64,000 nucleotides of DNA from Botryllus schlosseri. Lineage: Eukaryota. This document shows positions 463-61,400 of this stretch, in pieces (within the stretch, counting starts at the first letter, position 1; the number at the start of each line of letters is the position of its first letter). Where the stretch lies: contig CM119371.1 of the NCBI GenBank assembly GCA_051294905.1, forward strand, positions 26,848,001-26,912,000, written 5' to 3'. The notes under the pieces are model-generated. The model searched no databases, was not told the DNA's origin, and worked only from the letters and a program-made list of their open reading frames with translations. A program made the translations under genes and the position numbers.

Positions 463-755
463 TTATTCATCATCACCATCATCATGATCATCATCATCAT
501 CATCATTGTTATAGAAGAAATGCAAAAACAACTTCGCGGCCATGAATACTAGAATGTATATTAGTGGGGCCGTCTTAAAAACAATCGCCTCGCAACGGCG
601 CACAAATCTTTCCGCGTTCTCTCCTTCTAGGCCTTCTGCTGATTCTTGACAGTCCCGACGGCCCATCGCCATATACCAGACGTTGAAAATTGCGGCTCCC
701 GCGAGGCCGCCCCACCTCATGGGAATAGGTGCGGAAAAGTCGAAGTTATCTACAC
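463..755 (-). CDS. Copy 1 of unknown 2-TM protein family, terminal exon (alternatively a single-exon ORF from ATG 720)
   Basis: Aligns to copies 2-4: AMGR..C-x18-C, second hydrophobic helix, AK, acidic tail ending DDE-stop. Candidate phase-1 acceptor tcattcggctcag| at 756. Confidence 0.75.
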
Positions 756-1276
756 CTGAGCCGAATGATACGAGGAATTTACATCTTTGTATGCTACAAA
801 ATATCATCCTATGTAGTTCAAGTCTAAACAATGAGGGGGGCGTGGCCCAAATATTTTACGCAGCTGACTTTGCAACAACGCTTTTACGCTTTATATTGCG
901 TGCAGTTGCAATTTTTCATTCTACATGTGCATAGAAATTCACTAAAATCGACAACTAACTTATTAATCTATATTGAAAACTATTCGGCAGATTTGCAAAC
1001 AAGCGAAGTTAATATTTACATCACAATATCAATATGTCATTCACTATATTCAGATTCCAATACTAAACGATCATGAAATCACACCATTCCGTCCACATCA
1101 TGATCTAAAGTGAGAATGCTTAGCCGATTTATACAAGTCTGATAACATCTGATGTTAGAAGAGTATGGAAAATTCTCGAAAAAATATAATATTAGAAAAA
1201 GTGAATTTTAGGTTGTCAAAAATATTAACAGTTTGACAGAGTTGACAATGACTTTGACTTTCAGTATGTATCTCAC

Positions 1277-1387
1277 CGTCAAGCAGGTCGGGAAATATCA
1301 CCCGCTCAAACCATGTGACGCGATCGTGCATTACGCTCGACTGAATTGGTTCATTGTCAGGCCTGTTGGATGGAGTCCTTCCCGTGT
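1277..1387 (-). CDS. Putative internal exon of copy 1 (111 nt, ...RVTWFERVIFPDLLD)
   Basis: Acceptor ttccattgcag| and donor |gtgaga. Homologous to 22584, 47539 and 57172, with the same frame open in all four. Confidence 0.55.
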
Positions 1388-1554
1388 CTGCAATGGAATG
1401 AGTAAACGCTTAAGGCTATGATCAACATCCTACAATGCGAACGAAAAAACGTTGATTGACCAGATCTGTCTTGGTGCTGAGTATAGAGTATAATACTGAT
1501 ACCGCTGATTGTGAGACCTATAGCAATTCAATCCTTTATTGGACTACACATCAG

Positions 1555-1630
1555 TGGAGATGCGAAGCTTCAAGAAAATTCACTGTGTTGTTTGGAGATG
1601 CGAAGCTTCAAGAAAATTCACTGTGTTGTT
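1555..1630. repeat. Two tandem copies of a 38-bp unit
   Basis: tggagatgcgaagcttcaagaaaattcactgtgttgtt occurs twice in direct succession. Confidence 0.9.
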
Positions 1631-2451
1631 CGAATGCTCACAACAATATTCATGCAAGAAGTCATCCCATGCATATTTTAGCGAGCCCTTGTCCTGGCTC
1701 ACTTTACTTTTTTAAAACCTGTCAAATAACTCCATTCAAAATTGGTACGTTTTTTGCCTGCGTTGAAAGATTTCTGATGGTTTCACTTGATCTACGGTCC
1801 GTAAGCTAGACATGCCGCCCTAATTTACAACATATATTACCGATTTTCGCGACGTATTATTGACTGTAGACCTCTTGCAATCTCGGTAATGGAATATACG
1901 AAGACCACGAAGTATCAACAAACATTTACTACAGAACATTCCTGGTGAAATTTAAACACGAGAACAACCGACCAGTAGATCTATTTTATTTTTCTATTAT
2001 GGATCCGCTGCCGAGTCGCATTTGCGACGAACGATCATCTATCTTATTTTAATGGTCAGGTATTAATAATTTCCTTTGCATATTTTACTCACGTGAATGT
2101 AATTTTCAAAATACCAAACGAATGAATGAACGACAGCTGCAAAGATCAGGTGGCGGTGAACATTAAGCAATCCACAAAATATCTGGGCGTTGTCCTTTGC
2201 TACGATATCACTTTTTCATTTGCAAACATGAAGCATTAACGATAAATTAGCCTGACGGTAAATTTGATGACATGGCTATTCAATATACTTTTGCGAATAA
2301 GCATGCGTGACAGAAAACGCGAAATAGTGTTCAATTACATTTTGAAATGAATTTTTGAACATATTTTGTACTTAGTTCCGCAAGCCAAATCGCTCAGACT
2401 GAAGCCCTTTAAGCCTACATCCGAAACAAGCCCAAGCATTCAACCACACAC

Positions 2452-2521
2452 CATTAGAATCTTCATCTCTGTGGTCATCGTCTGAAGCTTCCTCAGCAGT
2501 GTTATCCCCTCTTCTCCTCAT
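2452..2521 (-). CDS. Putative first coding exon of copy 1 (MRRRGDNTAEEASDDDHRDEDSN)
   Basis: ATG and 70-nt length conserved in all four units. Donor is gtgtgt here and gtgagt in units 3 and 4. Confidence 0.45.
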
Positions 2522-3545
2522 ATCGTTGGTAATACAGCAACGAAAAGCTTAAGTTCAATATTTGTTGAAAATAATAGGGTAAACTGGAGGGTAAATATGA
2601 ATATAGTTATATCTGAGTATAAAATCCGAAGCAAGTAACCACAAGCGTTACGATGCTACTCACCACCGCAAAGCAATACCCTTAAGCGTACATACAATGC
2701 TGAGTAGACGATACTGTTTGTCTGGTGTTAATTGCCAATAGGAACGGGCCCAAGGTCAATAATTAGATGATGAAGCACCTGGAAGGAACATCTAATCACT
2801 AATTACCTTTTCAAAAGCGTTATTCCAGTGATGTAAGTTGTGGTCAGAAATTTGTCCAATTCACAAATCTTCTAAACACGTCAAGGTTTCAGTAAGAGTT
2901 TTACTGTGTTTTACACAGTTAGGGCTGCATTTGAAACAAATGATTGTTTCAAACAATCGCCTTTTAAAACAAAATGTTTTTTTAAGTTATAAAATCATGT
3001 CAGAATCGTGTAAATACATTCCAAAAAGCATGTTGTATGAGCCTACGGACAATTACCACGCAATATAGCTGACGTATACGATATGGGATGGTTGGAACCC
3101 CGAAAATAGGCGGATCAACAGCTATATATTCGTCTCACCAGTGAAAATCCGGTACGGACCAGGATGACGACGAGAGGCCGCAGAGCCTTAGTACACAGTC
3201 GCCACCTGCAAGAGTATACACGTTCCAATCAACGGCGCGTGACAATGAAAATAAATATACAAAACTACAAGAAATGTTGGGGGAAAAAGCAACCATGATA
3301 CAACGAGCTATATACATCAAAGTTTTGGGACTGCAGTGCAGGACTGAGTATAGATCGCAGTTTACACGGTACTTTACAATACAAGACAATAATTGAAATA
3401 CCGGCATGAAATTAAAACTTATCTAATAAATATTTCAGATAACGTTTTTTAAATAGATGATCAGGCAAATTTCTGAAGTGTACTGGTAGGGTTCCAGTTA
3501 AAGGCACCAAGTTAATAGAAACTATTCTGGGAGGACGATTTAGAT

Positions 3546-4833: not shown

Positions 4834-4954
4834 ATTCAGATACAAGCGGAAGTGACAACCCATTTGATGAGGCAGAACGAGTGAAGTGCGAATATACCGA
4901 GGCCAAAGTAGTGAAATGTTTGTCAAAGAATTGTCTGAACATTTGAGTATTTAT

Positions 4955-7033
4955 TGCGTCCCAAGCCGGCCTTGGATCACCCTTTCGTGGGTATAAGAGG
5001 TGCGTCAGGGGTTACGCATCTTAACTTTTGCTCATTTTCTTCATTGCCCCTAATTTGTTTTCTTTTATGTTTGCTCATCTGAGATCTTTTGGGATTCGCC
5101 GAGGATTTTTTCTGCGTCTTCTTCGTCCTCTTCCCTTTGTATTATTTTAATTCAAGTATTACTGAGCCGAGGATCCAATTGGTCATGATCTTAATAAGAG
5201 CTGTTTGCTGGTCATGTGTTATCCTCTCTTCTGGGTCCATTCGTATGATCTGCTGAAGGACTTGTGCTCCAATTTTTATTCGTGTTGCTTTTTGCCATGA
5301 GTTCAGGATCTTATCCAGGGCCAGCTTCGTTATCCTCATTCTGTGAATAGGTGCGCATGTGCTTCTAGTCTTATCCCACATATTTCGCAATCTCTCGTTT
5401 TTACTGCCAATCATGTCGTCATTCTGTCGTTGTTGGGTAGTATCCCCTGCGCGATATCCCAATTTATTTCCCTTTGCTGTTGTGTTTGGGTTCTGTGGTT
5501 GATATTTCCCCAGTTTGTTCCTTTCATTTCTGATATTTCTCTTTTCAGTTGTCTGTTCAGCATACCTTTGTATACATCTTTTCTGTTTTGGGGCAAGATC
5601 TTCTGTACTGATTTCGATGTCTATCATTGCCTCATTGACATTTTCCCAGTGTAGGGTGGTTGTAATGTGTGTGGCTTGTTGTTTTGGATGTGGCACTTTT
5701 TATATCTCTAGAGTACAAGGGCCAGCTGTTTGATGGTCTATTCTTTGCAACTCATCCCATTCACTTTCCCTTCATTTTTTAGGTAGCCTACATGATTGCT
5801 GGTTTGATGAAAGCGATATCTGTTTTTCTTGAGACGTCCACAGTATCCAACCCCCTTAGGGTTTTACTCAATGTCAGGCTCCTATATGTCATTTTTCTTT
5901 CTAGGCCAAAAAGGAAGGATTTGACTTTTTCTCTCAGCTTTGCTGCTAGGTGTTTAACGAATCCCGATGTTGCCGCTTGGTATACGAAGAGAGGCAGTAT
6001 ATTCGTTCTTACTATCACTACTTTTTCATGTCTTGGCAGATTCATTTTATCTACCTCGCTCATGATTTGGTCCGCTTTTCTTATTGCTTCCTCCCATTGT
6101 TTTTATGTAGTCTGCTCTCGGAGACTTATTTTGTTTCCAGGGATTGTTTTCTCCGTGGCCCATTTTAGCACCCTTGCTGGTGTTTGGCAGGCTCCCATCT
6201 CCGAAACGTACTCCCATTGTTTTTTCCTTGTTACTTTTCATGGTACTTGCCTTGCCGAATTTGTTTCTTATGTCAATTGTCTTTTTGTATTCCTTTTCGT
6301 CTCCGAGTGTTTAGAGATAGCGTCCGCATATGAGGGCGTTGTTATTTTGTCCTTGTGTCCTGTTAGCTTGTACCAATTGATGTCGCTGTTTATACATTGT
6401 AGGAGTGATTCCGTTGTGATTGGGAAGAGGAACATAGACAGCGGGTCTCCTTGTTTTAGTCCAGATTTGATTAGAATGTATTTTGCAGTTCTACCACCAA
6501 TCGAGACTTTTTCCTCTCCCTTTTGATATCTTTTTAAGGTACTGCTGCTTCGAGGGCTCCCTGCATAAACTCGTGGTTGATCATGGCGTATGCTTTTTTG
6601 AACGTCTCCTGAGACTATCACTCCTTTTTAGTATTCTCGCCAGTCTGCCCCGATCTTCCTTATAATTAGGTTCAACTGGCACATGTTGTCTGGCAAATTG
6701 ACGTATTGATGGCTGTGTGTTATATGCTTTAGGTTGTTTTTAGTCTGTTTGAGATTATCTTGTTTAGTATCTTGTAGTCCGAATTTAGTAATGTAATTGG
6801 CTTGTCATTTTTTTCCCTGTCATACCTTTTTTGTAGATGACTTTAATTATACCTCGTGCCAGTTCTGGAGGTATTTTTTGTACTCCGTATATCTTGCTGA
6901 GTGTTTCCGTAAGCTCCTTTAGTATGGTTTTTGAATTGAGTACATAAAATTCCGCACTTATTCCGTCTTCCCCAGGCGTTTGCCTTAATCTTTGCTGGGT
7001 TATCGCCAGTTTAACTTCAAGGAGTTGGATTTA
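4955..7033 (-). mobile_element. Decayed L1/Tx1-like LINE reverse-transcriptase fragment
   Basis: Fragmented frames with GIIKVIYKKG, PITLLNSDYKIL, SGLKQGDPLSMFLF and YADA (YADD-like); many frameshifts; ends approximate. Confidence 0.8.
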
Positions 7034-7380
7034 CCTAAATCGATATATAGCATCTATAAGATCAGAGGTCAGAAATTGTCTATATAGGAATATCTTGGAT
7101 GTCTGCTTCCGTTCTTCTCTTCTACGTATAACGTACAAGAAAATGTCGTTTCGGATTTGAGAATCATTCCTCCTATATGTATCTCATATTTGTTGTTGGT
7201 TTATCATTGCAAAACCGATGACCTCGAATTATTTACACATCGATCTTTCGTCATCGGCTGGATCAGTTCCAGAAAACAAGAAACCACAGAGTGTAAATTG
7301 CGCCTATGCCGAAAAAAAGTTTCCCGAATGGCCTATATGTTGATTAACCAACGTTGTCGAGAGACTCAGATACTGCGGAT

Positions 7381-7693
7381 TATTAATATTATTATTATTG
7401 GTACAACACAGTGGCGCTTATCGTAATCTTGGGGACGGCTTTCATTCTCTTCTCCCAGTCAATCTTCAGTCACCCTCACTAGCACGCGCCCCCAGCGTTG
7501 TCTCAGCTACCGCCTTGTAGCACGGCTCACTTTCGGTCTGGGCTTTTCAACGCACTACCGTAGTAGCAGGATCGGCGATGAGGAGCCCAGAGAAACCTCC
7601 GACACGTAGAAGTTGGTCAGAACCGGGATTCGAACCCACCTCCACTGGTGTCGTGACTGCACTGCGTAACCAACTGCGCCACTCGCTTCCCCG
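7381..7693 (-). mobile_element. tRNA-derived SINE, family A
   Basis: Head GGGGAAGCGAGTGGCGCAGTTGG (A box) and GTTCGAATCC (B box); (AAT)n tail; 13-bp TSD agatactgcggat; empty site at ~13540. Confidence 0.9.
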
Positions 7694-8447
7694 AGATACT
7701 GCGGATATACTTTCTCTGAATATAGAGCTTGTTCATTGTGAAACATTTTCTAGATTTTTCCGACTTGACTCTTGCTACTAATCATTCCGATAGTTTAGGA
7801 TGGGTTGGTGGGCCATTAGTGATTAAGAAGCCCCTGTAGAACGGTCAGGTTTGAGGTTTTATTCATATTCGATTGGATACAAGAGCTTCACATAGGAAAA
7901 TGTGAAGATAGTAAAACATCGAGGTTCATTCAACAAAAATAATGGCGTGGAGATCAAGTTACTCGGAATAGTGATTACGAGAGCTCACGAATCTTGGTTG
8001 ATTTTTCTAATATCGATCATTGAGTCTTCAAAACAATTTCTATACTTCAAAGTCGATTATTCAAACTTAAACGCTTGTCTAATTACGATAATAAATATAA
8101 TGGTGTTAGCTAGATCCTTCAACGAACAGAAATAAATGTTTAGTGTGGGTGTTCCATGGCATGGGTCGACATTCGACAATCTTCTCTCGACGCGACCCCG
8201 ATTCAAACGAAAATAAAATAATTCGACAAATGTTGTCTTCCGATATGTAGAAGAGCATTCGAAGGAATGCTTAAACTAAATCAGAGGTCTCAAACACGCG
8301 GCCCCGACGGCATTTTGGAATTTCAAGTATTCGACAATATATTTATGTGCCACATATATTTTCTAGATTTAAGAACTTCAAGTTCAACCTAAAACTACTA
8401 TAAAAATCACTGAAATCTCGACAAACTACACTATCACATCACTTTAA

Positions 8448-9207
8448 AGGGGACTCAAGTCAAAAACCTAACTTGCGGATGGCTACCCCAATCTCCATGA
8501 GATTTTCACAGTCGCTAGATGTCGCTATGCTACATACAAAAACATTGGTTCTACTCTGCATATGGTGGCATATTGAGGATTTGAAGGACAGAAAATACAC
8601 CGACACAGGGACTGCAAACTCTCAAAATTTGAAAGCCTTTTTACGATATAACACCTTCTTTAGGAAGTATTACGAAAGTGCTGTGCTATGCTAAAATTTG
8701 AAGGAATATGTGATACCTTTCTCGGAGAAATTTTGTTTCAAAATTTATAATTCAAATTTGTATCATAAAATTGCTGTAAGTTTGCTATAAAGTTCCGTAA
8801 CTCTTAGCATGGTTGACGTATGTAAAAAATATTTAGCATAGGACATGTTTGACTGTCCATTTGCAAAGTATCAAGTCAACAAGTGTTACCGATGTAATGA
8901 TGAGAATGATTGCCAGTATGCTTGAATGACAACTGACAACAATCTAACAAATTTGAACCCGGAGATAATATATATATATGTTCTAATGGTCAAACCATAT
9001 ATTTTATGAAGTTATCGGACGGAGCATGCGATCTTTTGGTTGGAACTTGACCCCTCCCCCCATTATCAAAGGAAAATAGAAATAAAATGTTGCTGTTTTT
9101 AATTATTGTTTTGGTGAAATATGGGCATGGTGTGGCAGATGTGACTCCTTATTTACAACCAGAAATAAATTTTGATTTTTCTGCAACTTTTTGACTTGCC
9201 AGTCCTC
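8448..9207. mobile_element. Non-autonomous DNA transposon, Kolobok-like termini (second copy ~14293-15040)
   Basis: ttaaaggggactcaagtcaaaaa ... tttttgacttgccagtcctcttaa: imperfect TIRs flanked by TTAA. Confidence 0.5.
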
Positions 9208-9315
9208 TTAAAAGCTACCGTGCGGTAGAAGACCAGCTATTTCGTCACATTTCTAGTTCATGATGATAAAACATCGATCGTTGAGGATTTGTGAGAGAAA
9301 ATTGTGATTTGGTTT

Positions 9316-9581
9316 GAGAGAGAGAGAGAGATATGGTATTCTTTTTCGCCTGCACCATCGAGATGCTTTGACGATTAGATGCGATACGGCGTTTATAGTA
9401 AGGTCATCTAGTCTGCACTCCCGTTTTTTTTCTCCTCCATGCTATCCGTGATTGCTGAGCGCCTAGCAGGATAGCCGCGGATACCAGTTTCCGAGTCTTT
9501 GGTCTGACCCGGCCGGGGATCGAACCCACGACCTACCGATCGAGAAGCCGGACGCACAACCATTACACTACCTCGCTCGGT
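9316..9581 (-). mobile_element. tRNA-derived SINE, family B, with (TC)n tail
   Basis: Head ACCGAGCGAGGTAGTGTAATGG...GTTCGATCC; further copies at 15149 and 46935. Confidence 0.85.
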
Positions 9582-10484
9582 GCATGCAACCTTTCGTAAA
9601 ATTACTCGATTTCAGATGATTGACTGTGTGAGTGAATAAAAACGACCCGAGTTGAGTCGGGTCAAACGTTGACATCAGAGAAGGACTTGCGACTCGGAAC
9701 GGTGACTTTGTCATCCTACGGACGTAACAAACTATGAAATTATCACGGGACTAGTAATATATCAAAGGTCATAGCTATCTAATCAGGTCAGTATGGCAAC
9801 CATCGTCATTATGCGAAAATTGAGTAGTTGTAGTTGTAGTTCTAGCTACGTATTTTGAAAATTAGGTAGTTGTAGTTCTAGTTGCGGATTTTGAAAATTC
9901 AGCAGTTCCAGTTCTAGTTCTAGTTACAAATATGAAAAAATATTAGCTGCCCAACAACTAGAAACACGTGTCGTGGTTTTGGGCGAATTTAGATGCCGGT
10001 GTTCTGTTGAATGACGTTTTTGCAGCCATTGCTCGCTCAAAGCTATCGCTGCTAACAGTGGAGTAGCCAGAAGGTGGCTTTTGAGGACAGAATCTCCTCC
10101 GTTTCAAACTTGAAACCCCGTTCTTTCGAATTGTCTAATACATGTCTGATATTTCCGATAACCTAATAATTAACGTGTTGACGAGGAGAATGAAATCTAG
10201 CTCTGAACGGTTGCGCGGTGTAATAATTTTTAATAATTTATATATTGAAAGCAATGCATTACGTGATTAGTACTAAGCTTCTGGGTTGATGTGTTACTAT
10301 TAGGCAATTACGAAATTAGATTCAAAGTGCAAATAAAATATTATTACCGCGTAATGATTCAAAATAATGGAGATTAGGAAATATTGTTAACTTTTTTTTT
10401 ATTCACACCGACCCATAGACACCAAAATGTATGGGATGTTACAGCTTGGTCACTATCCCGAGCGGTGCGTAGCTTGGCCAAATC

Positions 10485-10750
10485 CAGTGTTGGTATCAAG
10501 TCACTAACGTCGAGTCACAAGTCATCATTGTACATTTTGACTTGAGTCAAGTGAAGGCAATCGGTTTTTAAAAGTGACTCGAGTCAAGCCACTGGATATT
10601 TGGAGGTGGCTTGAGTCAAATCAAGTCGAGTCGAGTCGAGTCGAGCCGAGCTGAACCGAGCTGAACCGAGCCGAGAGCCGAGCCAAGCCAAGCCAATTCA
10701 AGCCAAGTCAAGTCATAATTCGAGTCAAGTGGCCTTTTCGAAGTATGAGG
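10485..10750. mobile_element. Left end of a GAGTC-repeat hAT MITE (truncated; duplicate at 16317)
   Basis: cagtgttggtatcaagtcac matches the left end at 3646; GAGTC/GAGCC pentamer array follows. Confidence 0.7.
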
Positions 10751-11739
10751 CATGATTATGTCATTGCATTTCGCCGACAAGACATAGCGTATTGGTCAAG
10801 CATCCGACTTTTTAATCGGTAGGTCGTCGATTCAACCCCCGGCCGTGTCAAACCAAAATGCCTGATTAGTAACACTGGCATCCATGACTTCATTGTTTGG
10901 CGCTCATATGCTATACTGGGATAGCATGGAGAGCTGATGCAAGACTTACAATGTCGTACAAGGCTATATCTGTAACTTCCTTGTCCAGCGGCATATGCAC
11001 ATAATGCACTCATGATATGCATATGCACAGATCGAGTGTATGGTCATCATGAGTCGGTGTATATGCCACAAAAACATCACGGATAAAAATAAACTACGCC
11101 TTTATTAAATGGATTAAATGGATGAACAGCAGATAGAGTTTTCTGAAGCATGTGCTGAACCATTTACAACACCATGGTCTATTTTTATCAAATCTCTGAC
11201 CACTACTGAGGCTTTCTGCAACAATCGCAAAAGTAAATTCAAGTTTTCAACAAAGGCTTCATCAAAATTTATCTCGCATTTGTAGAGATGTTATCCTAAT
11301 CTTACCTCCAATCTGAGCCAAATTTACTCGGGCCATAAACTTTCGCCGCCCTAATGTTCATCAAATGCAATCTAATAATTTTTGAGCAAGTGAAAATATA
11401 AATGCGAACCAAAATTTTATAATTCGTAGTTATCAGGAACTTATTTTCTTTTGCATTTATTTTAATTTTACACACCTTATCGGTAGGGCTGGGCACAATG
11501 ATTCGAGTACTCGAATCTGAATCGAGTATTTATTTTCATGATTCGAGTCGAGTAGTAAAAGACGAATTTTTCGAGTACTGAAATTATACGCTCTTCGCCA
11601 CTGAAAGTTAATTTATCAACAAAAATTATAGCTTCAATACTATTTTTCACTTTGGCAGACATGAAACCTTGATTTGCCGTACCGCAGCATACAAAACAGG
11701 GTATAAAATACTTGTACAACGCCACGAACGTTACTAGAA

Positions 11740-15148: not shown

Positions 15149-15413
15149 GAGAGAGAGAGAGAGATATGGTATTCTTTTTCGCCTGCACCATCGAGATGCT
15201 TTGACGATTAGATGCGATACGGCGTTTATAGTAAGGTCATCTAGTCTGCACTCCCGTTTTTTTCTCCTCCATGCTATCCGTGATTGCTGAGCGCCTAGCA
15301 GGATAGCCGCGGATACCAGTTTCCGAGTCTTTGGTCTGACCCGGCCGGGGATCGAACCCACGACCTACCGATCGAGAAGCCGGACGCACAACCATTACAC
15401 TACCTCGCTCGGT
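15149..15413 (-). mobile_element. SINE family B (duplicate of 9316-9581)
   Basis: Identical apart from one T in a homopolymer. Confidence 0.85.
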
Positions 15414-17315: not shown

Positions 17316-17834
17316 TAGGGCTGGGCACAATGATTCGAGTACTCGAATCTGAATCGAGTATTTATTTTCATGATTCGAGTCGAGTAGTAAAAGACGAATT
17401 TTTCGAGTACTGAAATTATACGCTCTTCGCCACTGAAAGTTAATTTATCAACAAAAATTATAGCTTCAATACTATTTTTCACTTTGGCAGACATGAAACC
17501 TTGATTTGCCGTACCGCAGCATACAAAACAGGGTATAAAATACTTGTACAACGCCACGAACGTTACTAGAAATATCACATTTGCGAAGTCATGATTATCC
17601 CACAACATTGTCACAAAGTTCAATGAAATCGGCATGGTCGAAAAATATCAAGTATCGTATCGCTAACAGGCATCGTGTTCTTTGTGTTGGCATAAGAGGT
17701 ACTTATTTGAACTTAGACATATTACATTCTGTTATGACGTCATAATGAGTGATACTCGAATATTCGACTCGACTCGAAGCATATTACGTGATTCAGAATC
17801 GAATCACTCAGGTACTCGAATTTGCCCAGCCCTA
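17316..17834. mobile_element. hAT-type MITE (TAGGGCTGGGCA TIRs); truncated copy at 11484-11741
   Basis: 12-bp TIRs; TSD cttatcgg/gttatcgg; empty site at ~31670. Confidence 0.9.
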
Positions 17835-19998: not shown

Positions 19999-20250
19999 TT
20001 ATTCATCATCATAGTGATTGAGAAAACACACTAAGCACTTAGCGGCAACGAAGGTGATAAGGTACATTCCAGAGGCTATCATATATACATAGTAGTCGCA
20101 ATGGCGGATGGAGTGTGCCACGTCCTCTCCTGCGTGGTCTGCTGTTCCTTCTCGACATAGGTAGCGGCCCATCGCAATCCACAAAAATGTGAAAAACAAG
20201 CTCAGTAAGATGCCGCAATATATCATGGTATATCCTGAGAAAAGATTCAT
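19999..20250 (-). CDS. Copy 2 of unknown 2-TM protein family (terminal exon probably 19999-20234)
   Basis: 83-aa ORF with two hydrophobic segments, C-x18-C and DDE-stop. Colinear without indels with copies 3 and 4. Acceptor ttttctcag| at 20235. Confidence 0.8.
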   Translation of the reverse strand: MNLFSGYTMIYCGILLSLFFTFLWIAMGRYLCREGTADHAGEDVAHSIRHCDYYVYMIASGMYLITFVAAKCLVCFLNHYDDE

Positions 20251-22992: not shown

Positions 22993-23028
22993 CAGTAATA
23001 GTTGCAAGGCACGCCGTCTCATTTATAA
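22993..23028 (-). CDS. Possible 36-nt phase-1 micro-exon (INETACLATIT); homologues in units 3 and 4
   Basis: acag| ... |gtgagc conserved in units 2-4; no homologue found in unit 1. Confidence 0.25.
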
Positions 23029-23044
23029 CTGTCAATGTCAATGT

Positions 23045-23237: not shown

Positions 23238-23620
23238 TAGGGATGGTGTGAACGTGAGGTTCACGTTCGCGTTCTGTGTGTGAACCTAAGCAATTCGGAG
23301 GTTCTCGTTCACAAACGGTTCTGCACTGTGAACGTTTTTCTTGTATGACAATTTCCTTTTCCTACAACATATTTGGTTAAATTTTTCGCTTTTCAACTGC
23401 GGGCCACTCTATACATAGCGCTGGCAGCATAAAAATCAACACTTACCGAACATATACATTGACAATCTCAAACATTTTACTTGCTTTGTTACAAAGGTTT
23501 ACTCGAAATATCCATCTTTCCGTTTGCGAATATTTAGTGACTGTCTGCTGTGAGCTTGACCCGCAATGACACAGCATCAAGAGAGAAACACACCACGTGT
23601 TGTCAGCGAATGATGCTTAT
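23238..23620. mobile_element. Truncated TAGGGATGGTGTGAAC MITE (also ~48160 and ~57834)
   Basis: Left end matches the full copy at 37172-38458. Confidence 0.8.
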
Positions 23621-23831
23621 TGACCGTAAATTGACGGTAAATTCGATGGCATGGCTATTCAATATACTTTTACAAATAAGCATGCGTGACTGGAAAATGC
23701 CAAATAGTGTCCAATTACATTTTGAAATTAATTTTTGAACTTAGTTTGTACTCAGTTCCGCAAGCCAAATCGCTCAGAATGAAGCTCTTTAGGCCTACAT
23801 CCGAAACAAGCCCAAGCATTCAATCACACAC

Positions 23832-23901
23832 CATTAGAATCTTCATTACTGTGGTCTTCGTCTGAAGCTTCCTCAGCGGTGTTATCCACTCTTCTCCTCA
23901 T
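23832..23901 (-). CDS. Putative first coding exon of copy 2 (MRRRVDNTAEEASDEDHSNEDSN)
   Basis: Conserved ATG, 70 nt, donor gtgtga. Confidence 0.4.
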
Positions 23902-42750: not shown

Positions 42751-42986
42751 TTATTCATCATCATCGTTATTGACAAAATACACTAAGCACTTAATGACAA
42801 CGAATATGACAAGGTACATTACAGAGGCTATCATATATACGAAGTAGTCGCAATGACGGGTGGAGTGTGCCCCGTCCTCTCTTGCTTGGCCCGCGGTTCC
42901 TTCTCGACATAGGTAGCGGCCCATCGAAATCCAAAATAATGTCATAAACAAGATCAGAAAGACGCCGCAATGCATCATGGGAAAAC
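42751..42986 (-). CDS. Copy 3 of unknown 2-TM protein family, terminal exon
   Basis: ORF 42751-42978 is colinear with copies 2 and 4. Acceptor ttttctcag| at 42987. The upstream ATG of copies 2 and 4 is out of frame here. Confidence 0.8.
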
Positions 42987-47646: not shown

Positions 47647-48757
47647 CTGTATCGGTAATAAAATATGGCTACGCATTTCGTGTCCTGATCAAAATTTTAC
47701 ACACAATCAAAAACGGGTATAAATCAAACTTGTGACATTTTCAGGCAATACGTTTAAATTTCTTCCCGATAACAGTTTAGGTAATGATCCATGCATACTA
47801 AATAACACGATATATGAGCACTTTGAAATTCGACAGAAAATCGGGAATCTCTGTAGAACGAATATTTTGAGCAGTGGTAAACTATATACGTTTGGCAACC
47901 GGGCCTGACGTAACTTATGCGGTAAAACAGCGGATAACACATGTGCTCACCAGTATTAGTTGCAAAGCGCGTTGTCTCATTTATAACTGTTACCGTTGTG
48001 GCGAGACCTATCAACGAAATCAGAGACCTATCAATGAAATCCTCTATACTACTGTTGTTGTTCAGCCGTAATGTTGACGATACATTACTGATTTCACTGC
48101 AGTGTTTCTGAAACTGGTATCCTCTTTGAGGCATTCGAAGTCCACGAATGACCCACAAATAGGGATGGTGTGAACGCGGGGTTCGCGGTCTCGTTCTGTG
48201 TGTGAACCTCAGCAATTTGGAGGTTCTCGTTCACAAACGAACCTTGGTAGGTTCTGCACTGTGATCCTTTGTCATATATGACAATTTTCATTTCGTAACA
48301 ACATCTTTGGTTGAATTTTTTGCATTTCAACTGCGGGCAATTCTATGCATAGCGCTGGCAGCATAAAAATCAACACTCACAGAATATGTACCTGGACAAT
48401 CTCAAAAATTTTACTTGCTTTGTTACAAAAGTTTACTCGAAATATCCATATTTCCGTTTGCGAATATTCAGTGACTGTCTACTGTGAGCTTGAGCCGCAA
48501 TGACACGGCATCAAGAAAGAAACACACTACATGTAGTCAGCGAATGATGCTTATTGACGGTAAATTCAATGGCATGGCCATACAATATACTTTTGCAGGT
48601 AAGCATGCGTGACTGGAAAATGCCAAATAGTGTCCAATTACACTTTGAAATTAATTTTTGAACTTAGTTTGTACTCAGTTCCGCAAGCCAAATCGCTAAG
48701 AATGAAACTCTTTAGGCCGACATCCGAAACAAGCCCGAGCATTCAACCATCACTCAC

Positions 48758-48827
48758 CATTAGAATCTTCATCACTGTGGTCTTCGTCTGAAGCTTCCTC
48801 AGCGGTGTTATCCACTCTTCTCCTCAT
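48758..48827 (-). CDS. Putative first coding exon of copy 3 (MRRRVDNTAEEASDEDHSDEDSN)
   Basis: ATG plus consensus donor g|gtgagt. Confidence 0.5.
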
Positions 48828-53407: not shown

Positions 53408-55242
53408 CAGGGGTGGGCAAACTTTTGAGCCAGCGGGCCGCCTTCAACATGTGAATCCATTCGCGGGCCGCACTATATAAAATTGGGATTATAAACGAAA
53501 ATGCCATATTAGTAGTTGATTATATTGTGAGGACATGGATATAATGTATATGCTTATTTAAAACAAACCAAACATTACTTAGTTATAATCGTACAGCGTC
53601 AGAATCAGTGGCGAGATTTCATAGGCTGGTTAACCTCAATAACCAATTTGTCAAAACTATAGAGATGCCAGTCGGTTTTCCCGATTCCTAGAACCTTATT
53701 GAAATTTAGATCTGTGAGCAGCGATCTGTTCATTAGGGCTCTTCAAAAATGACTTTTTTTCTCAAATCGTATGGCTACTTGATAAAATTGTTAGGTTACC
53801 TAATTTAAGCCTACACACAAAATTTTGTTCAATTCCAGCCAGTAACCGCTTTGCTACAGGAGAAGTAAGTTTCTATTTATTATATAAAAATAAATGATAA
53901 AAATTTGAAAATTTTCTGTTCACCCCATGAAAGTGTTAGGCTGTCTATAGAAACGATGCTCACCAAATTTGGTTCAATTCCAACTAGTGGAATCAGAGTT
54001 ATCGCCGTCGAAAAATTTGGATTTGAATAAAATAGTATTTACTGTGAGCACAACTGTAATAAATAAATGAAGAATCGGTCACCGTAAATACTATTATATT
54101 CAAATCCAAATTTTTCGACGGCAATAACTCCGCTTCCACTGGTTGGAATGGAACCAAATTTGGTGAGCATCGTTTCTATAGACAGCTCAACACTTTCATG
54201 GGGTGAACAGAAAATTTTCAAATTTTTTATCAGTTATTTTTATATAATAAATAGAAACTTACTTCTCCTGTAGCAAAGCGGTTACTGGCTGGAATTGAAC
54301 CAAATTTTGTGTGTAGGCTTAAATTAGGTAACCTAACAATTTTATCAAGTAGCCAGTAAGATTTGAGAAAAAAAGTCATTTTTGAAGAGCACTACTGTTC
54401 ATAGATTTACTAATTCCACTTTTGGTTCAGTTCAAGGCCACAGAATGCTGACAGCATCATAACCATGTTAGCTTCTAACACACTTCTACTGTGTGTTGAT
54501 AAAATATAAATACCCAAATCCTACGGATATAGAGAACGAATCTTCCTAAGACACGCACGAATCTTATTTTATTAGCACATCACTAAAATAATTAAAACTG
54601 GAGTCGCCAATCTGAAATCACTCTCGTGATCCGAATTATGTAAATCTCGTTTAGGATTGCTGTGATGTTTAGCAGTTGAAACCTTTCAAACTGCGTGGGC
54701 CTTCATATCGGGCTGTCGCGCCAGAAACTGAACATGAAAAATAAAATAGGAAGTATTTACCTTTGAACAGTGGTTACCAAACTTTTTAGGTGATGGTGAA
54801 AGATTTCGTGCCCCTTCTCGTCTAATCGCAAAACTCAACCAGGATGCTAGCAAACCAAATGGATAGTTTGATGGCATGAAAGGTTACGACTGTAGATGAG
54901 AGATTTTTAATTATGAAATTGATACTAAATGCAGCGCAATGACTATGAACTGGAAGTAAATCGCGCGGAGCGCGAACATTTTTTTAGTTGAGCTCAGCTT
55001 CGCGCCCTCTTCAGATGCTTTCACTACCCAAGTGGGGCACATCCCCCAGTTTGATAACCACTGCGTCAGAATTATCATGGTGATATATACTAAGAAAACG
55101 TTTATTCAAGACCCTGGATTGATTCGATTTCTAGTGCACATTTTATCTATGTATTTAATAAGTTTCTTTAGACTCCCGAAGGCCGCATATAACGGTGTTG
55201 CGGGCCGCATGCGGCCCGCGGGCCGTACTTTGCTTACCCTCG
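53408..55242. mobile_element. Charlie-like composite MITE, same family as 35118-38809
   Basis: caggggtgggcaaac left end; TSD atctacgc/atctgcgc; internal sequence colinear with the other copy. Confidence 0.88.
53734..54394. mobile_element. Foldback (palindromic) MITE with ~310-bp arms
   Basis: 53734-54042 is a near-perfect reverse complement of 54084-54394; TSD ctgttcat; empty site at ~35440. Confidence 0.92.
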
Positions 55243-55795: not shown

Positions 55796-55927
55796 AGAGC
55801 TTCTTAGAGGTACAGAACTTCAATATGCAATTGAACAGCATATTCATATTGAAATGACGATTACCCTTGACGAGTGTCAGCCGAAAATATTCGGGTTCAT
55901 TTCAATATGAATATACTGGTCAATTGT
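55796..55927. mobile_element. 132-bp Penelope-derived mini-insertion with a hammerhead-like core
   Basis: TSD atatactgaaga; start resembles 21450 (gtacagaacttca); inverted arms around accc-ttgacga-gtgtcagcc-gaa-aatatt-c-gggt. Confidence 0.75.
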
Positions 55928-56354
55928 ATATACTGAAGAGTATATATTAGGGTTACCATACTTATTTTATAAGGATTCGTCCTCTTTTTTTGAGAATTTC
56001 GGCAAAATATAGGCTAAAATTCGACTGAGATACAGTAAATCTGCACTGAAGTAACGTTCTGGCAGCTATTTCAGGAGCTGAGCCGGAAATCTGACCTTTT
56101 GTTTAGTCAACTAGCGGACAACGTGAAAGAAAAACTGTGTTGAGCGGGAAAGTTGAACTTCTTTATTTTAGTCAACCGACCAAGAAATGGGAAAAAATGA
56201 ATTTTTTTTTTTAATTTTTCACCGGTATAGTGAGTCTGAAAATTTTGAATAAGTGTCCTCTTTTTTAGATTTCTAAAATATGGTAACCCTAGTCACAGTG
56301 TATACAAGCCTGATACAATTTAGAGTGGTCTTAATATAGCACAGTAAATAACTT

Positions 56355-56606
56355 TTATTCATCATCATCGTTATTGCCAAAATACACTAAGCACTTAGCG
56401 CCAAAGAATATGACAAGGTACATTCCGAAGGCACTCATATATGTGACGTAGTCGCAACGGCGGACGGAGTGCGCCACATCCTCTCTTGGTTGGCCTGCTG
56501 TTCCTTCTCGACATAGGTAGCGGCCCGTCGCAATCCACAATAATGTGAAGAATAAGATCAGTAAGACACCGCAATACATCACGAAGTAACCTGAGAAAAT
56601 ATTCAT
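56355..56606 (-). CDS. Copy 4 of unknown 2-TM protein family (terminal exon probably 56355-56590)
   Basis: 83-aa ORF colinear with copies 2 and 3; acceptor ttttctcag| at 56591. Confidence 0.8.
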   Translation of the reverse strand: MNIFSGYFVMYCGVLLILFFTLLWIATGRYLCREGTAGQPREDVAHSVRRCDYVTYMSAFGMYLVIFFGAKCLVYFGNNDDDE

Positions 56607-57171
56607 GTTATCTGTAACGCAGCCGACTTAGAATAGGAATATTTAGCTGCATATATGTACCAAAGGTGGTCAGTAACGAAGTAGGCCTAATTTTACTTAT
56701 TCGTACTCCTGAAAGTCGGTTCAACTGACTGCACTCTAGTCTGTTACACAGCGTGAGATGCGACGGTGCCTTTATACATTATACGTTATAAACTGTTTCA
56801 GAATTTAACCAGAGTGTCTTGAATATTGATCAAAATCGATCATTTGTAGGTAACAAACGTGTGTGTCAGACATAGAAGTAGAGGTGGCAGAGAAATAATG
56901 TTATATTCAATACTTCACAATATCTCCTACTTACATCTTCACTCCCTAAATTTCAATAGAAAGAACATATTTAATTAAATCGGATAATTATGCCAGAATC
57001 GTGGCTACAAGCTTTAATGTGCAGATAATGTAAGACGCCACTAACAGCAGGATGAATATTAAGAGAAAAATACCAATCAATATCATATTATAAAAGATGA
57101 AGCTGCGACTTAATTTTGCCAAGAATATTTAGCTGTGATTCATGTCATTGGATATGATTTTTGCATCTCAC

Positions 57172-57279
57172 CGTCCAATATGTGATGAAATCTCCTGAGC
57201 TCCGAGAATGTGGTATAGCGACCAGGGTTCTGTCTTGACCCTCTTCTTTCATAGAAGATTCTGGGGGATCGAGTCCTTT
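57172..57279 (-). CDS. Putative internal exon of copy 4 (108 nt, ...RYTTFSELRRFHHILD)
   Basis: Conserved acceptor and donor; open frame. Confidence 0.55.
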
Positions 57280-58415
57280 CTGTATCGGTAATAGAATATG
57301 GCTAAGCGTTTCGTGCTCTGATCAAAACTTTACAAACAATTAAAACCGGGTATAAATCAATCTTGTGACATTTTCAGGCAATACGTTTACATTTCATCCC
57401 GATATGAGTTTAGGTAATGATCCATGCATACTAGATAACACGCTATACGAGCACTTTTGAATTCGACATGAAATCGGGAATCTCTTTGGAACGTATATCT
57501 GGAGCAGTAACTAACTATATCCGTTTGGAAACCGGGCCTGATATAACTAATGCGGTAAAACCGCGGGTAAAAACATGTGCTCACCAGTAATAGTTGCAAG
57601 GCACGCTGTCTCATTTATAACTGTCAATGTCAATGTCCTATCAATGAAATCCGAGACCTATCAATGAAATCCGAGACCTATCAATGAAATCCGAGATCTA
57701 TTAAAGACATCCTTTATACTACTGTTGTTAATCATCCGTAATGTAGACGATACATTAATGATTTCACTGCAGTATTTGTGAAACTGTTATCCTCTTTAAG
57801 GCATTCATTGGAAGTCCACGAACGACCCACAAATAGGGCGGGTGTGTGAACGTGAGGTTCACGTTCGCGTTCTGTGTGTGAACCTCAGCAATTTGGAGGT
57901 TCTCGTTCACAAACGGTTCTGCACTTTTAACCTTTTCCCGATATGACAATTTTCTTCTAACAACATCTTTGGTTGAATTTTTCGCCTTTCAACTGCGAGC
58001 CACTCTATACATAGCGCTGGCAGCATAAAAATCAACACTTACCTAACATGTACATTGACAATCTCAAACATTTTACTTGTTTTGTTACAAAGGTTTACTC
58101 GAAATATCAATCTTTCCGTTTGCGAATATTTAGTGACTGTCTGCTGTGAGCTTGTCAGCATCAAGAGAGAAACACACTACGTGTGGTCAATGAATGCTGC
58201 TTATTGACCTTAAATTGACGGTAAATTCGATGGCATAGCTATTCAATATACTTTTGCAAATAAGCAGGCGTGACTGGAAAATGCCAAATAGTGTCTAATT
58301 ACATTTTGAAATGAATTTTTGAACTTAGTTTGTACTCAGTTCCGCAAACCAAATCGCTCAGAATGAAGCTCTTTAGGCCTACATCCGAAACAAACCCAAG
58401 CATTCAACCACTCAC

Positions 58416-58485
58416 CATTAGAATCTTCATCACTGTGGTCTTCGTCTGCAGCTTCCTCAGCGGTGTTATCCGCTCTTCTCCTCAT
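58416..58485 (-). CDS. Putative first coding exon of copy 4 (MRRRADNTAEEAADEDHSDEDSN)
   Basis: ATG plus consensus donor g|gtgagt. Confidence 0.5.
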
Positions 58486-61400
58486 ATCGTTGGTGATGCA
58501 GCAACGAAAAGCGTAAGTTTATTAGGGAGCCTACTTGTTGAAAATAATAGGGTAAACTAGAGGATAAATATGAATATAGTTATATCTGAGTATGAAATCC
58601 GAAGCAGGTAACCACAAACTTCGTGATGCTACTAACCACCGCACAGCAATACCGTTAAGCGTACAGAGAATGCTGTGTAGACGATGCTGTGAGTTATGTT
58701 CGTCTGGTGTTGATTGCCAATGCGAACGGGCCCAAGGTCAATAATTAGATGATGAAGCACCTGGAAGAAACATCTAATCACTAATCATCTAATCACCTTT
58801 TCAAAAACGTTATTCCGGTGATGTACATTCTGGTCAGAACTTTGATCAATTCACAAATTCTCCAAACACGATAAGGTTAAAGTAAGAGTGGTGTTTTAAA
58901 CAATAACCTTTCAAAAAAATGGGTTTTAAAGTTATAAAATCATGGCATAATCGTGTAAATACTTTCCAAAAAACATGTTGTATGGGCCTACGGAAATTTA
59001 CCATCTGATATAGCTAACGTATACGATATTGGATGGTTAATGGAACACCTTATAATAGTCGGTTCAACATCTATAGTACGTATATATTTCGTCTAAGGAG
59101 CTATATTGACCCTATATTTTAATTTGTCAATGTCAAACCACTATGACGTCACAAATGAATATTCGTGACGTCATGGCTTGAAGAACAAACAAAAAATAAA
59201 AATCAAATTTCAAGCAAGGGCCTTATTTTGAGCATGTTTGTTTTGAATTGATTTTTTTCTTAAATGCAACAATATACACAGTTATATACATATACTATTA
59301 GTAGGAAAATATATATCAAGAAGAGGTAAAGTAGTTTTTCCAGTAAATGACCCGTAACTGGTCATATTTATACGTAAATCGACAGATAAGTACCAATAAG
59401 ATCCGAGGTCCAAATTTGTCTATAGTAATATCGTGGATGTCTTTTGCCGTTCTCTTCGACTTCCTCGTGTACAGGAAAATGTCGTTTCGGACTCTAGAAT
59501 ATCAGCATAGCAATTACTCATCCTAGGTAGCTCAGATTCGTTGTTGGTATGTCATTGCAAAACCGATGACCTCGAATTATTTACATTATCGTTTCGATAT
59601 GTCGTCATTGGCTGGATCAGTTCTTGAAAACAAGAAACCAGAGAGTACAAATCGCGCCGAGGCCGAAAAATGTTCAAATTGATCGGATAGCGGCCCCCGA
59701 ATGGCCTATATGTTGATTAACCAACGTTGTCGAGAGGCTTAGCTACAGCGGATATACTTTCTCTGATTGTAATGCTTGTTCAATGTAAAATATTTGGTGG
59801 ATTTTTCTGACTTGACTCCTGCTTCTGATCATTCCGATAGTTTAGGATGGGTTTTTGGGGCATCAATGATTAAGAAGCCCCTGTAGAACGGTCCAATTTG
59901 AGGTTTAAGTCATATTCGATTGGATACAAGAACTTCAAGTGGGAAAATGTGACTATAGTAAAACATTGTTGTGCATTTAGCTAAAAATAATAGCGTGGAG
60001 ATCGAGTTACTCGGAAGGGTGATTGCAAGGGCTCACGAATCTTGGTTGATTTTTCTAATATCGATAAATGAAACGAGCCTTCAAAGATATTTCTATACTT
60101 TAAACTCGTATATTCAAACCTGAACGGTTGCCTAATTACAATAATAAATAGAATGGTGTTACCTAAGGTCCCACAACTAACAGAAATATACGTTCAGTGT
60201 GGTTGTTGTATGGCAGTGGTCGGCAACCTTTATCCGACGCGACCCCAGTTGAAACGAAAATAAACTCATTCGACACATTTTGCCTTGCGATACGGAGAAG
60301 AGCACAATCAGGATTGCTTAAACTAAACAGTAACAGTTGCGTTGACCCCATAATAGAGCTATCTCTAATTTCAGATAACTATTTCAAAATTACCGTTTCT
60401 ACGACACAACACAAATTGTCACCGTTTAATTTGCATTGGTAATGCCATAGCTGAGCCTTTATAGCTGTGCCTCCACCAGTTGTCGAAGCCTCGGCTTGAC
60501 TTTTCATACGCTCAACAATGTCTCATTCTCTGCTTGAATTTGATAAAAATGTTTCATTTTCAATATATTGATACTATGCCATCCATATATTGCTAATTTT
60601 TTTTTCCTGCTGAAGATGCCCCTTTGTTCAATATGGCATTTTGCGAATTTAATGGTAACATGTAGGGTCGCATTAAAACATGGCCCTTATTTAAACGTAC
60701 ATATTTTCTCTGGTGTATTAGCCTTGTGCGGGATTGCAAACTTGATACCGTGGCAGCTAAAATCTGCTTTATATTGGTTTAATATAAGTGACCGAAGTTC
60801 TAATCGGTGCCGTATACGTACTCAAGTTAGGATGTTGATACCGATACTGATACCCCGGCAATTAAATGTATATTTCTACCCGTTACATACATATTGAAGT
60901 AACGGGAGGGACGGAAGTTTTAATCGGTCCAGTAGATATGCGAGGTAGGACAATGATACTTGAACTACAAATAAAAATTAAATTTATATTGTCTATATAT
61001 TATGTACATACGGGTATAGATGGTTAAGCATGCTAGTAGCTTTATTATTCAAGTAATGGAATAATTACCGCAGTAAATCTTTACTTAATGATGAGCAGAA
61101 ATGACAATTTCCAAGACGCGTTCAAACCACTTCAAATGGAAGTAGAAAAGAAATGCAAAATATATCATTTAAATTATACACTGCCGCAGGGTGAGTTGCT
61201 CTGAATCAATCTTTCTTCGTGATACAGAGTCAACACATGGTAACGCAGATCTTCTTACAATATGACTTTAGGAGGATGTGTGTGACGTCTTGTCTCGTAG
61301 ACACATACTCCGAGTATATCCATGATTATATCCGAACAAATTCGCTGGCAAATATTTCCGAAACTTCACATATCCTAATACTTTCTACGAAATAGGCAGG

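Follow-up and report, generated by a model that had tools for sequence, protein, structure and literature searches.

Hybrid genes that arose when neighbouring paralogues recombined by unequal crossing over include the anti-Lepore arrangement, in which a hybrid lies between its two retained parent genes. Among small membrane proteins, PIRT, TMIE, barttin and the dispanins/IFITM share a length of about 100 residues, two hydrophobic segments, a short loop, short charged tails and juxtamembrane cysteines, and class II viroporins are small, with two helices and basic residues beside the loop. In Drosophila, chimeric new genes have arisen in a repeat-mediated manner, with a repeat fragment at the breakpoint of the chimeric duplicate, as described in PMC2211543. 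In Botryllus, the FF/FcoR allorecognition receptors show tandem amplification and intergenic recombination, according to PMC12582321. Here we analysed a window of 64,000 nt of Botryllus schlosseri (GCA_051294905.1, contig CM119371.1, positions 26,848,001 to 26,912,000). The locus likely holds six adjacent intact copies of an undescribed two-exon gene family, the four inner ones being hybrids of the outer two.

Gene copies, predicted exons and the hybrid junction

The preliminary description reported four paralogous minus-strand ORFs, one per large repeat unit. The four ORFs, with stops at 463, 19999, 42751 and 56355, were confirmed, but the total is six, as two more copies lie just past the window on the same contig (copies 5 and 6, at 26912810 and 26925015). 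No further copies were found elsewhere in the genome, leaving a single locus. The repeat unit is out of step with the gene, and the copy 1 ORF lies outside it. The open frames are real, but they are likely second exons, the upstream exon having been missed.

An ATG-led block of 70 nt was found 1.7-5.8 kb 5' of the ORF in all six copies. Its length and ATG are constant although copy 6 is only 54-59% identical, and in every copy it ends in a donor motif G/GTRWGT (background 0.19 per kb), three of the donors being GTGTGT and not GTRAGT. A phase-1 AG lies 8 nt before the aligned Met in five of the six copies and 35 nt before it in copy 1, which does not have the acceptor common to the others. The insertion in copy 3 (Table 1) excludes more distal acceptors in a shared frame. 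The joined exon 1 and exon 2 frames contain no internal stop in any copy, frameshifts and stops are found immediately outside the predicted exons, and the rate of change in exon 1 is 0.45 times that of the non-coding flanks (p = 0.03). The predicted spliced product has 101 residues (120 in copy 1), with 24 codons preceding exon 2. Splicing of exon 1 to exon 2 is, in our view, probable; the protein would then begin with an N-terminal tail that is first basic and then acidic, continue through helix 1, a loop of 25 residues and helix 2, and end in an acidic C-terminal tail. The AATAAA overlapping each stop codon is likely a poly(A) signal. Two further readings of the sequence upstream of exon 1, as GPCR-like and as carrying an additional coding exon of 124 nt, were rejected, because there is no Pfam match, stops or frameshifts occur and the sequence is not conserved in copy 6.

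Fragments of LINEs and other repeats are abundant in the introns. About 6 kb upstream of copy 6 exon 2 there is a fibrinogen-domain gene, and genes of the NACHT and C-type-lectin-like kinds occur at most 85 kb from the window. Fusion of copy 6 with the fibrinogen-domain gene was rejected, since the reading frame of that gene closes at its own stop near window-equivalent position 83588 and an exon 1 proper to copy 6 is present.

The preliminary description had also passed over the hybrid origin of the inner copies. In exon 1 they match copy 1 at 93-94% and copy 6 at 54-59%, whereas in exon 2 they match copy 6 at 81-83% and copy 1 at 53-58%. With five regions compared, the type switches between intron start and intron end in all four; in copy 2 the intron is of copy-6 type up to 23237 and of copy-1 type from 23632. 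The junction, with the same breakpoints and the same repeat fragment in each inner copy, places about 385 nt of a repeat where about 330 nt of homologous intron would be. Copy 6, like copy 1, does not carry this element, and the two introns are 62-65% alike in two blocks. These parents stand on either side of the hybrids and resemble each other at 41-65% over the length of the gene. The common repeat-filled junction in all four hybrids indicates a single rearrangement, amplified later. Very probably, there was a single recombination between two old paralogues, A (copy 1) and B (copy 6), within the intron at a repeat fragment; this event would have joined the A upstream region and exon 1 to B exon 2 and positioned the hybrid between both parents, and unequal crossing over would then have raised the hybrid number to four. 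The family grew in the manner of ordinary hybrid genes; the locus preserves, with unusual clarity, a repeat-bridged hybrid of two old paralogues and its amplification between the parents.

Table 1. Features of the array in window numbering, continued past position 64,000 for copies 5 and 6 (a slash marks the exon-intron boundary).
Feature	Position	Strand	Remarks
Copy 1 (parent type A), likely exon 2	463..755	-	helix, Cys loop, helix, acidic tail; splice inferred
Copy 1, exon 2 acceptor	755, alternative 749	-	phase 1 at 755; aligned Met at 720
Copy 1, predicted intron	756..2451	-	1696 nt; no junction element
Copy 1, likely exon 1	2452..2521	-	70 nt, ATG, MRRR then acidic; donor G/GTGTGT, phase 1
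Copy 2, likely exon 2 (copy-6 type)	19999..20234	-	acceptor TTTTCTCAG/G, phase 1; aligned Met 20226
Copy 2, junction	23238..23631	.	interspersed-repeat fragment
Copy 2, likely exon 1 (copy-1 type)	23832..23901	-	donor G/GTGTGT
Copy 3, likely exon 2 (copy-6 type)	42751..42986	-	1-nt insertion directly upstream of acceptor
Copy 3, junction	48160..48554	.	breakpoints and repeat fragment as in copy 2
Copy 3, likely exon 1	48758..48827	-	donor G/GTGAGT
Copy 4, likely exon 2 (copy-6 type)	56355..56590	-	GTG at aligned Met position
Copy 4, junction	57834..58215	.	breakpoints and repeat fragment as in copy 2
Copy 4, likely exon 1	58416..58485	-	donor G/GTGAGT
Array continuation marker	63990..64000	-	array extends past right window end
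Copy 5 (hybrid), exon 2	64807-65042
Copy 5, junction	67061-67443
Copy 5, exon 1	67644-67713
Copy 6 (parent type B), exon 2	77012-77247
Copy 6, exon 1	81756-81825		diverged, 70 nt; donor G/GTAAGT
AATAAA over stop codon	462..467 (also 19998, 42750, 56354)	-	6/6 copies

The predicted hairpin, its evolution and its expression

The layout first reported, a hydrophobic stretch, (A/S)(M/T)GR..C, 18 residues, C, a hydrophobic stretch, K and an acidic tail ending DE-stop, is present in all four ORFs, and copy 1, as had been noted, is diverged (21-32% protein identity to the others) yet keeps the frame and the Cys spacing. The Cys pair is invariant in seven of seven sequences, namely the six copies and an outside homologue. 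Two AlphaFold2 models (pLDDT 74 and 71) show two long helices and a 5-residue turn. The predicted product is a small two-pass helical-hairpin membrane protein. The helices are almost without charged residues (per-pair p 0.03-0.08, the pairs not being independent), and the first helix of copy 1 is weakly hydrophobic (0.84). The charge-difference rule favours a cytosolic loop in five of the six copies (difference +2 to +6.5). Human non-GPCR multipass proteins are biased toward the topology proposed earlier, with an extracellular loop (PMC13220792). We lean towards both tails being cytosolic, with the two Cys stapling the outer end of the hairpin.

The claim that the family is unrecognised held in Pfam and NCBIfam profile scans, which gave no known family; weak rows (best E 0.005-0.2) were single members of unrelated families, and PIRT, CD225, TMIE, MS4A and ninjurin were not among the profile matches listed for the seven sequences. 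A single-protein sequence search gave no candidate. Profile searches of 1.84 billion representatives and 5.8 billion clusters found only P0018, an outside homologue that keeps the frame and both Cys; this seventh variant, from outside this genome, shares just 56-67% identity with copies 2-6. A further match, P0019 (E 1e-6), was discarded, its score being summed over 11 repeats of an unrelated 1105-residue protein. No relative was found in viral and metagenome contigs, PDB sequences or Rfam, and the fold searches gave generic helical hairpins only (Foldseek, no E under 0.001; VIA, best Z 8.9). A match to a transposable-element protein was looked for and is absent, with no Pfam mobile-element family, no dispersed copies and no viral relative. 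The searches and models thus support a lineage-restricted, tandemly amplified small two-helix membrane protein, as first proposed. The parts of the literature available contain no description of this two-helix family, and it appears to be undescribed. On present evidence the locus is one of several orphan membrane-protein clusters in this genome.

No stop or frameshift is seen over a tree length of about 1 substitution per site. When neutral evolution was simulated on this tree (n = 4000), all six frames stayed stop-free in 0.4% of cases and both Cys were never kept as well (0/4000), and 4.8-12.9 frameshifts were expected under neutrality at indel rates of 1 per 15-40 substitutions, which we chose from flank values of 8-54; these simulation figures are inflated, because the ORF was selected for being open. 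We conclude that the reading frames are very probably maintained by selection. The dN/dS values of 1.05 and 1.16 are not different from 1, and the M2a versus M1a comparison (1.7 and 3.6) is not significant, at the low power of 5-6 sequences. Changes per non-degenerate site amount to 0.24 in the loop and 0.41 and 0.38 in the helices, with 0.26 per site in the intron; no part varies less than the Cys loop, a pattern that speaks against a variable display loop. Substitution in exon 2 runs at 1.5-1.7 times the rate in the introns and flanks of the same gene (p 6e-4 and 1e-4). With CpG sites left out, this excess drops to 1.34 (p 0.06), and the increase at four-fold sites is as large as that at non-degenerate ones.

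Sampling 3-6% of each raw run, we found 0 reads on exon 2 of copy 4 in three RNA or RNA-guessed runs and 0 on exon 2 of copy 1 in four runs. Copies 2, 3, 5 and 6 were covered only via reads able to align to copy 4 at 85%, and in the copy 1 run set the signal of the copy 2 ORF was masked by an expressed repeat in the same bin. Trace RNA reads were present in the 274-nt bin containing copy 4 exon 1. No joint matching the predicted intron was among those listed (15 of 550 and 15 of 80). A run search listed no RNA run as containing array sequence; its query took in the repeats at 19537-19894, and the small-share runs probably reflect these, as one of them, run X5, had zero depth on the copy 4 ORF.

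Possible functions

By analogy with other small membrane proteins, we propose, with a probability of about 0.5, that the hairpins of this two-exon family likely serve another membrane protein as accessory subunits, in a narrow cell type or at a narrow stage. A more detailed version is tentative: the hairpin would pack against its partner via the helices, the N-terminal MRRR/MKKR of the predicted products, which we take to be an ER-holding motif, would keep it in the ER until assembled, and the hybrids would place B-type hairpins under A-type control.

The preliminary description instead suggested a recognition system (allorecognition, gamete or immune interaction), which would rest on an outward-facing, disulfide-closed loop that has diversified. 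Such a role is possible but unsupported, and we regard it as unlikely. It would fit the fast exon 2, the divergent seventh variant, the fibrinogen-domain, NACHT and C-type-lectin-like neighbours, and the tandem amplification and intergenic recombination that also mark Botryllus FF/FcoR (PMC12582321). A variable recognition loop is not supported: the loop is the region of least change, the M2a test is non-significant and exon 2 of copies 1 and 4 drew no reads in the runs sampled; moreover, the rate excess weakens off CpG sites and extends to four-fold sites, and no ectodomain or fester-like sequence was found. A related idea, which we hold to be a long shot, is a tunicate compatibility or defence system with intramembrane specificity, where hairpins vary mainly in the helices on a fixed disulfide-stapled cap with the A upstream region and cytosolic tail grafted on, and the choice of partner would be set by copy number and helix sequence, both varying from one individual to the next. 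Expression in gametes or blood cells together with polymorphism among individuals would make the family a new candidate, open to testing, for tunicate recognition.

Were translation to start at the inner Met of a single exon, the product would be either a 75-residue type I protein whose signal peptide can be cleaved off, or a hairpin with its tails outside and palmitoylated Cys in a cytosolic loop. The ATG at the aligned position in five of six copies, TATA-like and initiator-like words seen by eye 50-80 nt upstream, and a hydrophobic 19-mer whose A/S-M-G end resembles a cleavage site by the rule for signal peptides speak for it, as does the charge rule for the tails-out form. It is nevertheless improbable, as it leaves the 70-nt ATG block with its donor in six of six copies and the slow rate of that block unexplained, has no basic n-region, and meets GTG at the inner Met in copy 4 and an out-of-frame ATG just upstream in copy 3. 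Recent silencing or redundancy, with copies drifting to pseudogenes and one or none still mattering, is rather improbable: a dN/dS near 1, the repeat-laden introns and the missing exon 2 reads of copies 1 and 4 would suit decay, whereas the open frames over the whole tree, the nearly charge-free helices (with the non-independent pairs noted above) and both Cys in all seven sequences speak against it, and the read sample was a small share of each run. Very improbable is an oligomer of the hairpin that acts like a viroporin or a ninjurin, as a small pore or a filament that bends the membrane; the size, two helices and basic loop-flanking residues of the hairpin recall class II viroporins by analogy, but viral and PDB libraries gave no sequence or fold match and no conserved polar helix face was noted by eye.

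Comparison with known systems

The fester family and FcoR resemble this array in being membrane-protein genes of a tunicate that lie in tandem and exchange segments through intergenic recombination, whereas FF proteins have a signal peptide, Ig and Sushi domains, three helices and about 350-400 residues and are paired with FcoR, according to PMC12582321. Two helices are predicted here, versus the three C-terminal helices of FF. No GR..C-x18-C motif, DDE tail or any resemblance was seen by eye in FF1-FF28 as far as the source presents them, a six-frame Pfam scan of 56700-61700 and 860-3300 gave no Ig/Sushi ectodomain, and no Ig or Sushi match occurred among 82 flanking ORFs of at least 85 residues, a set that leaves out short exons. 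PIRT, TMIE, barttin and IFITM are like the hairpin family in layout only, with no Pfam match to any.

Close genomic parallels are the anti-Lepore globin and glycophorin hybrids, where the 5' part likewise comes from the downstream paralogue and the 3' part from the upstream one, and the hybrid lies between two retained parents and then gains copies. Unlike in those cases, the parents here are only about 55-60% identical, and, unlike in anti-Lepore, the join is not in homologous register, a repeat fragment replacing homologous intron. In this respect the array matches the repeat-mediated chimeras of Drosophila, which also carry a repeat fragment at the breakpoint (PMC2211543). In contrast to those chimeras, the protein layout is unchanged here, because both halves come from paralogues of one family.

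Copies, relatives and predicted gene structure

A six-frame scan of the window confirmed the four minus-strand ORFs of the preliminary description, ending at 463, 19999, 42751 and 56355, and the motif GR..C-x16-20-C was matched in all six frames by these ORFs only. The array was proposed to have four copies; four are indeed present in the window, but the total is six, with copies 5 and 6 lying past it. Searching the genome (495.5 Mb, 219 contigs) with copy 2 gave six candidates, all of them matches, within a span of <77 kb, and queries with copy 1 and the outside homologue P0018 recovered the identical six loci. The 18-residue Cys spacing noted earlier is present in all copies, and the stop codon is overlapped by AATAAA in 6/6.

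P0018 (59 aa, on a 4790-nt Logan contig) is the sole homologue found when 1.84 billion representatives and 5.8 billion clusters were searched; these libraries may under-sample intron-bearing tunicate genes. Over 55 residues it shares 56-67% identity with copies 2-6 and 36% with copy 1. Since this genome holds no exact copy of P0018, it likely represents a copy from another haplotype or a close species. The proteins had been described as belonging to no recognised family, and Pfam, NCBIfam, PDB-sequence and specific fold searches gave no match; no description of the family appeared in the literature listings either. Fester-family membership was ruled out, as the FF proteins in the available part of PMC12582321 carry Ig, Sushi and three helices. 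The six copies and P0018 form a real, apparently undescribed orphan family.

Indels cease some 25 nt upstream of the aligned Met, and every copy has an upstream 70-nt block, starting with ATG and ending in G|GTRWGT. This donor motif has a background of 0.19 per kb (264 kb scanned), and the exon 1 end is the sole position where all six copies carry it. The copy 6 block is merely 54-59% identical to the others, yet its length and ATG are unchanged, its changes are conservative (MKKRGD vs MRRRxD) and its donor is GTAAGT. The donor is in phase 1 and has a partner AG in the same phase, which sits 8 nt before the Met in copies 2-6; in copy 1 it is the one at 755. Joining exon 1 to exon 2 leaves 6/6 frames stop-free (101 aa; 120 aa in copy 1), each product showing two hydrophobic peaks. 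Exon 1 evolves at 0.45 of the rate seen in non-coding sequence (copies 2-5; 6 substitutions/70 nt; p 0.03). Splicing of exon 1 to exon 2 is predicted from these features, a gene model with good sequence support. Upstream of exon 1, at 2640-2810 and homologous positions, are blocks common to both parent types, copies 1 and 6 (TAATTAG word, ATTGG box), possibly a promoter or, in the copy-1 type, a 115-124-nt non-coding first exon.

Predicted exon 1 blocks and boundaries of the two intron types (window numbering, continued past its end for copies 5 and 6)
Copy	Exon 1 block	Strand	Block features	Copy-6-type intron ends	Copy-1-type intron begins
1	2521-2452	-	ATG + donor motif		
2	23901-23832	-	ATG + donor motif	23237	23632
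3	48827-48758	-	ATG + donor motif	48159	48555
4	58485-58416	-	ATG + donor motif	57833	58216
5	start 67713	-	ATG + donor motif	67060	67444
6	start 81825	-	ATG + donor motif		

Probable coding constraint and predicted topology

Pairwise dN/dS among the copies is 0.6-1.8, a one-ratio model gives 1.05 (copies 2-6) and 1.16 (all six), and fixing dN/dS at 1 hardly worsens the fit. Despite these values, no ORF in any copy contains a stop or frameshift. Neutral evolution was simulated 4000 times: the frames stayed stop-free in 3.8% of simulations for five copies and in 0.4% for six, and 0.5% and 0/4000, respectively, also kept both Cys. Because the ORF had been picked for being open, these figures somewhat overstate the case for coding. 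Flank-like indel rates, chosen by us from flank values, predict 2.5-6.5 frameshifts for five copies and 4.8-12.9 for six. Because frames are intact at such ratios, charged or helix-breaking residues are rarer than expected in the helices (per-pair p 0.03-0.08, the pairs not being independent) and 13 columns are invariant across seven sequences, we read selection as probably preserving the frame, the hydrophobic character and a handful of fixed residues, with other positions turning over freely.

AlphaFold2 models, built from alignments of only 6-7 sequences, agree with the two-helix layout, showing the exon-2 part as a helical hairpin in copy 2 (helices 6-36 and 42-82, pLDDT 74, pTM 0.50) and copy 1 (helices 10-39 and 45-84, pLDDT 71). 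Because the modelled helices run up to a short turn, the loop would be mostly a helical extension of both membrane helices, with the two Cys lying four positions ahead of the turn and nine beyond it. Under the charge-difference rule for membrane topology, the difference around helix 1 (+2 to +6.5 in copies 2-6, 0 in copy 1) would favour a cytosolic loop. Neither side carries a glycosylation sequon. We prefer cytosolic tails with a disulfide-bonded Cys pair, predicted with a probability of about 0.6, because a cytosolic N-terminus with short exoplasmic loops is strongly favoured among human non-GPCR multipass proteins (PMC13220792), the Cys spacing is invariant in 7/7 sequences and the spaced pair are the only Cys of copy 1. 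By analogy, the predicted product would most likely serve as an accessory membrane hairpin with narrow expression.

Variability, transcription and surroundings of the array

Exon 2 changes faster than the non-coding flanks (1.54-fold in copies 2-6, p 6e-4; 1.70-fold in copies 2-5, p 1e-4), and its divergence exceeds mid-intron in 10/10 pairs. With CpG sites left out, the ratio drops to 1.34 (p 0.06), and four-fold sites (0.38 changes per site) are raised over introns (0.26) as much as non-degenerate sites (0.35). Intronic gene conversion and CpG decay are both possible sources of this excess. A variable recognition loop is unsupported, for the loop is the least changed region (0.24, helices 0.41 and 0.38) and M2a vs M1a gave no significant positive selection. 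Variation, if any, sits in the helices, and recognition within the membrane by the hairpins seems quite improbable.

Coverage was examined in seven of 24 listed runs. With 3-6% of each raw run read, depth was zero over the copy 4 ORF in X23, X21 and X5 (85% likeness) and over the copy 1 ORF in X23, X24, X1 and X12 (80% likeness); X20 covered all 30 bins, copy 4 ORF included. The copy 2 ORF bin also contains a highly expressed repeat, masking copy 2 signal. Near exon 1, four X23 reads with two start points at 58522 (copy 4) and X24 depth of 0.49 at 1784-2450 (copy 1) may be unspliced RNA or DNA. Because of the small fraction read, this is weak evidence that the copies are silent.

Short repeats at 7510-7692, 19784-19894 and 55800-55930 have very high RNA depth. 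Thousands of reads terminate at 7692 on an adapter, which we take to be the template-switch adapter, giving a sharp 5' end, likely that of a SINE-like transcript made at another genomic site. Positions 9496 and 16693, and likewise 10862 and 15327, are linked on opposite strands by about 1300 RNA reads per pair, so expressed sequence elsewhere carries a pair of these repeat pieces in inverted order.

Retroelement fragments are numerous around the locus. Unit 1 contains a young 4-kb duplication (7694-11741 and 13541-17573, 97.5% identical), with a decayed LINE reverse-transcriptase fragment on the minus strand beside each duplicate (5611-7380 and 11740-13553, 90%). A plus-strand non-LTR element has left fragments at 34433-34999 and 40720-41781, the second with RVT_1 (E 1e-34), and a close relative lies at L008:9919 (-). 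A 667-nt near-perfect palindrome at 53731-54397 (92% to its own reverse complement) is probably a foldback or MITE-like element. The 170-aa ORF inserted in the copy 2 intron (21724-22236, -) resembles by eye a GIY-YIG (Penelope-type) endonuclease fragment and had no Pfam match at 0.001.

Window-equivalent 83.6-84.5 kb encodes a fibrinogen C-terminal domain (E 2e-5). A multi-exon fibrinogen-domain gene (L002:9588-9998 and L003:77-900, -) lies directly upstream of copy 6, its last exon seemingly missing, by eye, the usual C-terminal cysteines. A NACHT ORF lies 82 kb ahead of the window (E 2e-15), and there is a weak C-type lectin match at 145 kb. The NACHT ORF at L019:6300-7721 (-), 474 aa long, has 17 listed relatives (33-55%), every one an unnamed Logan protein. 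Among animals, GH6 is a tunicate marker. The genome has two interrupted GH6 glycoside-hydrolase genes above the Pfam cut-off, in tandem 43 kb apart (G000:C9:15,024,085-15,070,354; L026, L027), where 14 control genomes have none. Each is accompanied by upstream exons, and one of these encodes a stretch resembling a membrane helix.

Probable hybrid origin of the inner copies

Five regions were compared, and in every one the likeness of copies 1 and 6 is 41-60%. The inner four resemble copy 1 in the 290 nt upstream (88-90%), exon 1 (93-94%) and intron start (86-92%), and copy 6 in the intron end (80-89%) and exon 2 (81-83%). The type switches at the same bases in 4/4 inner copies, with about 385 nt of interspersed repeat between the two intron types. 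This repeat is absent from the corresponding site of both parents, and longer versions lie nearby, e.g. at 63210-64157. Since all four share breakpoints and a repeat that the parents lack, the first hybrid would have arisen by one rearrangement, subsequent unequal exchanges likely giving four. The repeat may either have caused the join, if insertions on two different haplotypes recombined with each other, or have served to patch it. The hybrid nature of the inner copies would explain why DNA upstream of copy 1 is 80-87% like other units although its ORF is far diverged, and such a history has good sequence support.

Anti-Lepore and glycophorin hybrids are genes of comparable genomic history, but unlike in those, the join here is out of homologous register. 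The array history also resembles that of the repeat-associated chimeric duplicates of Drosophila (PMC2211543).
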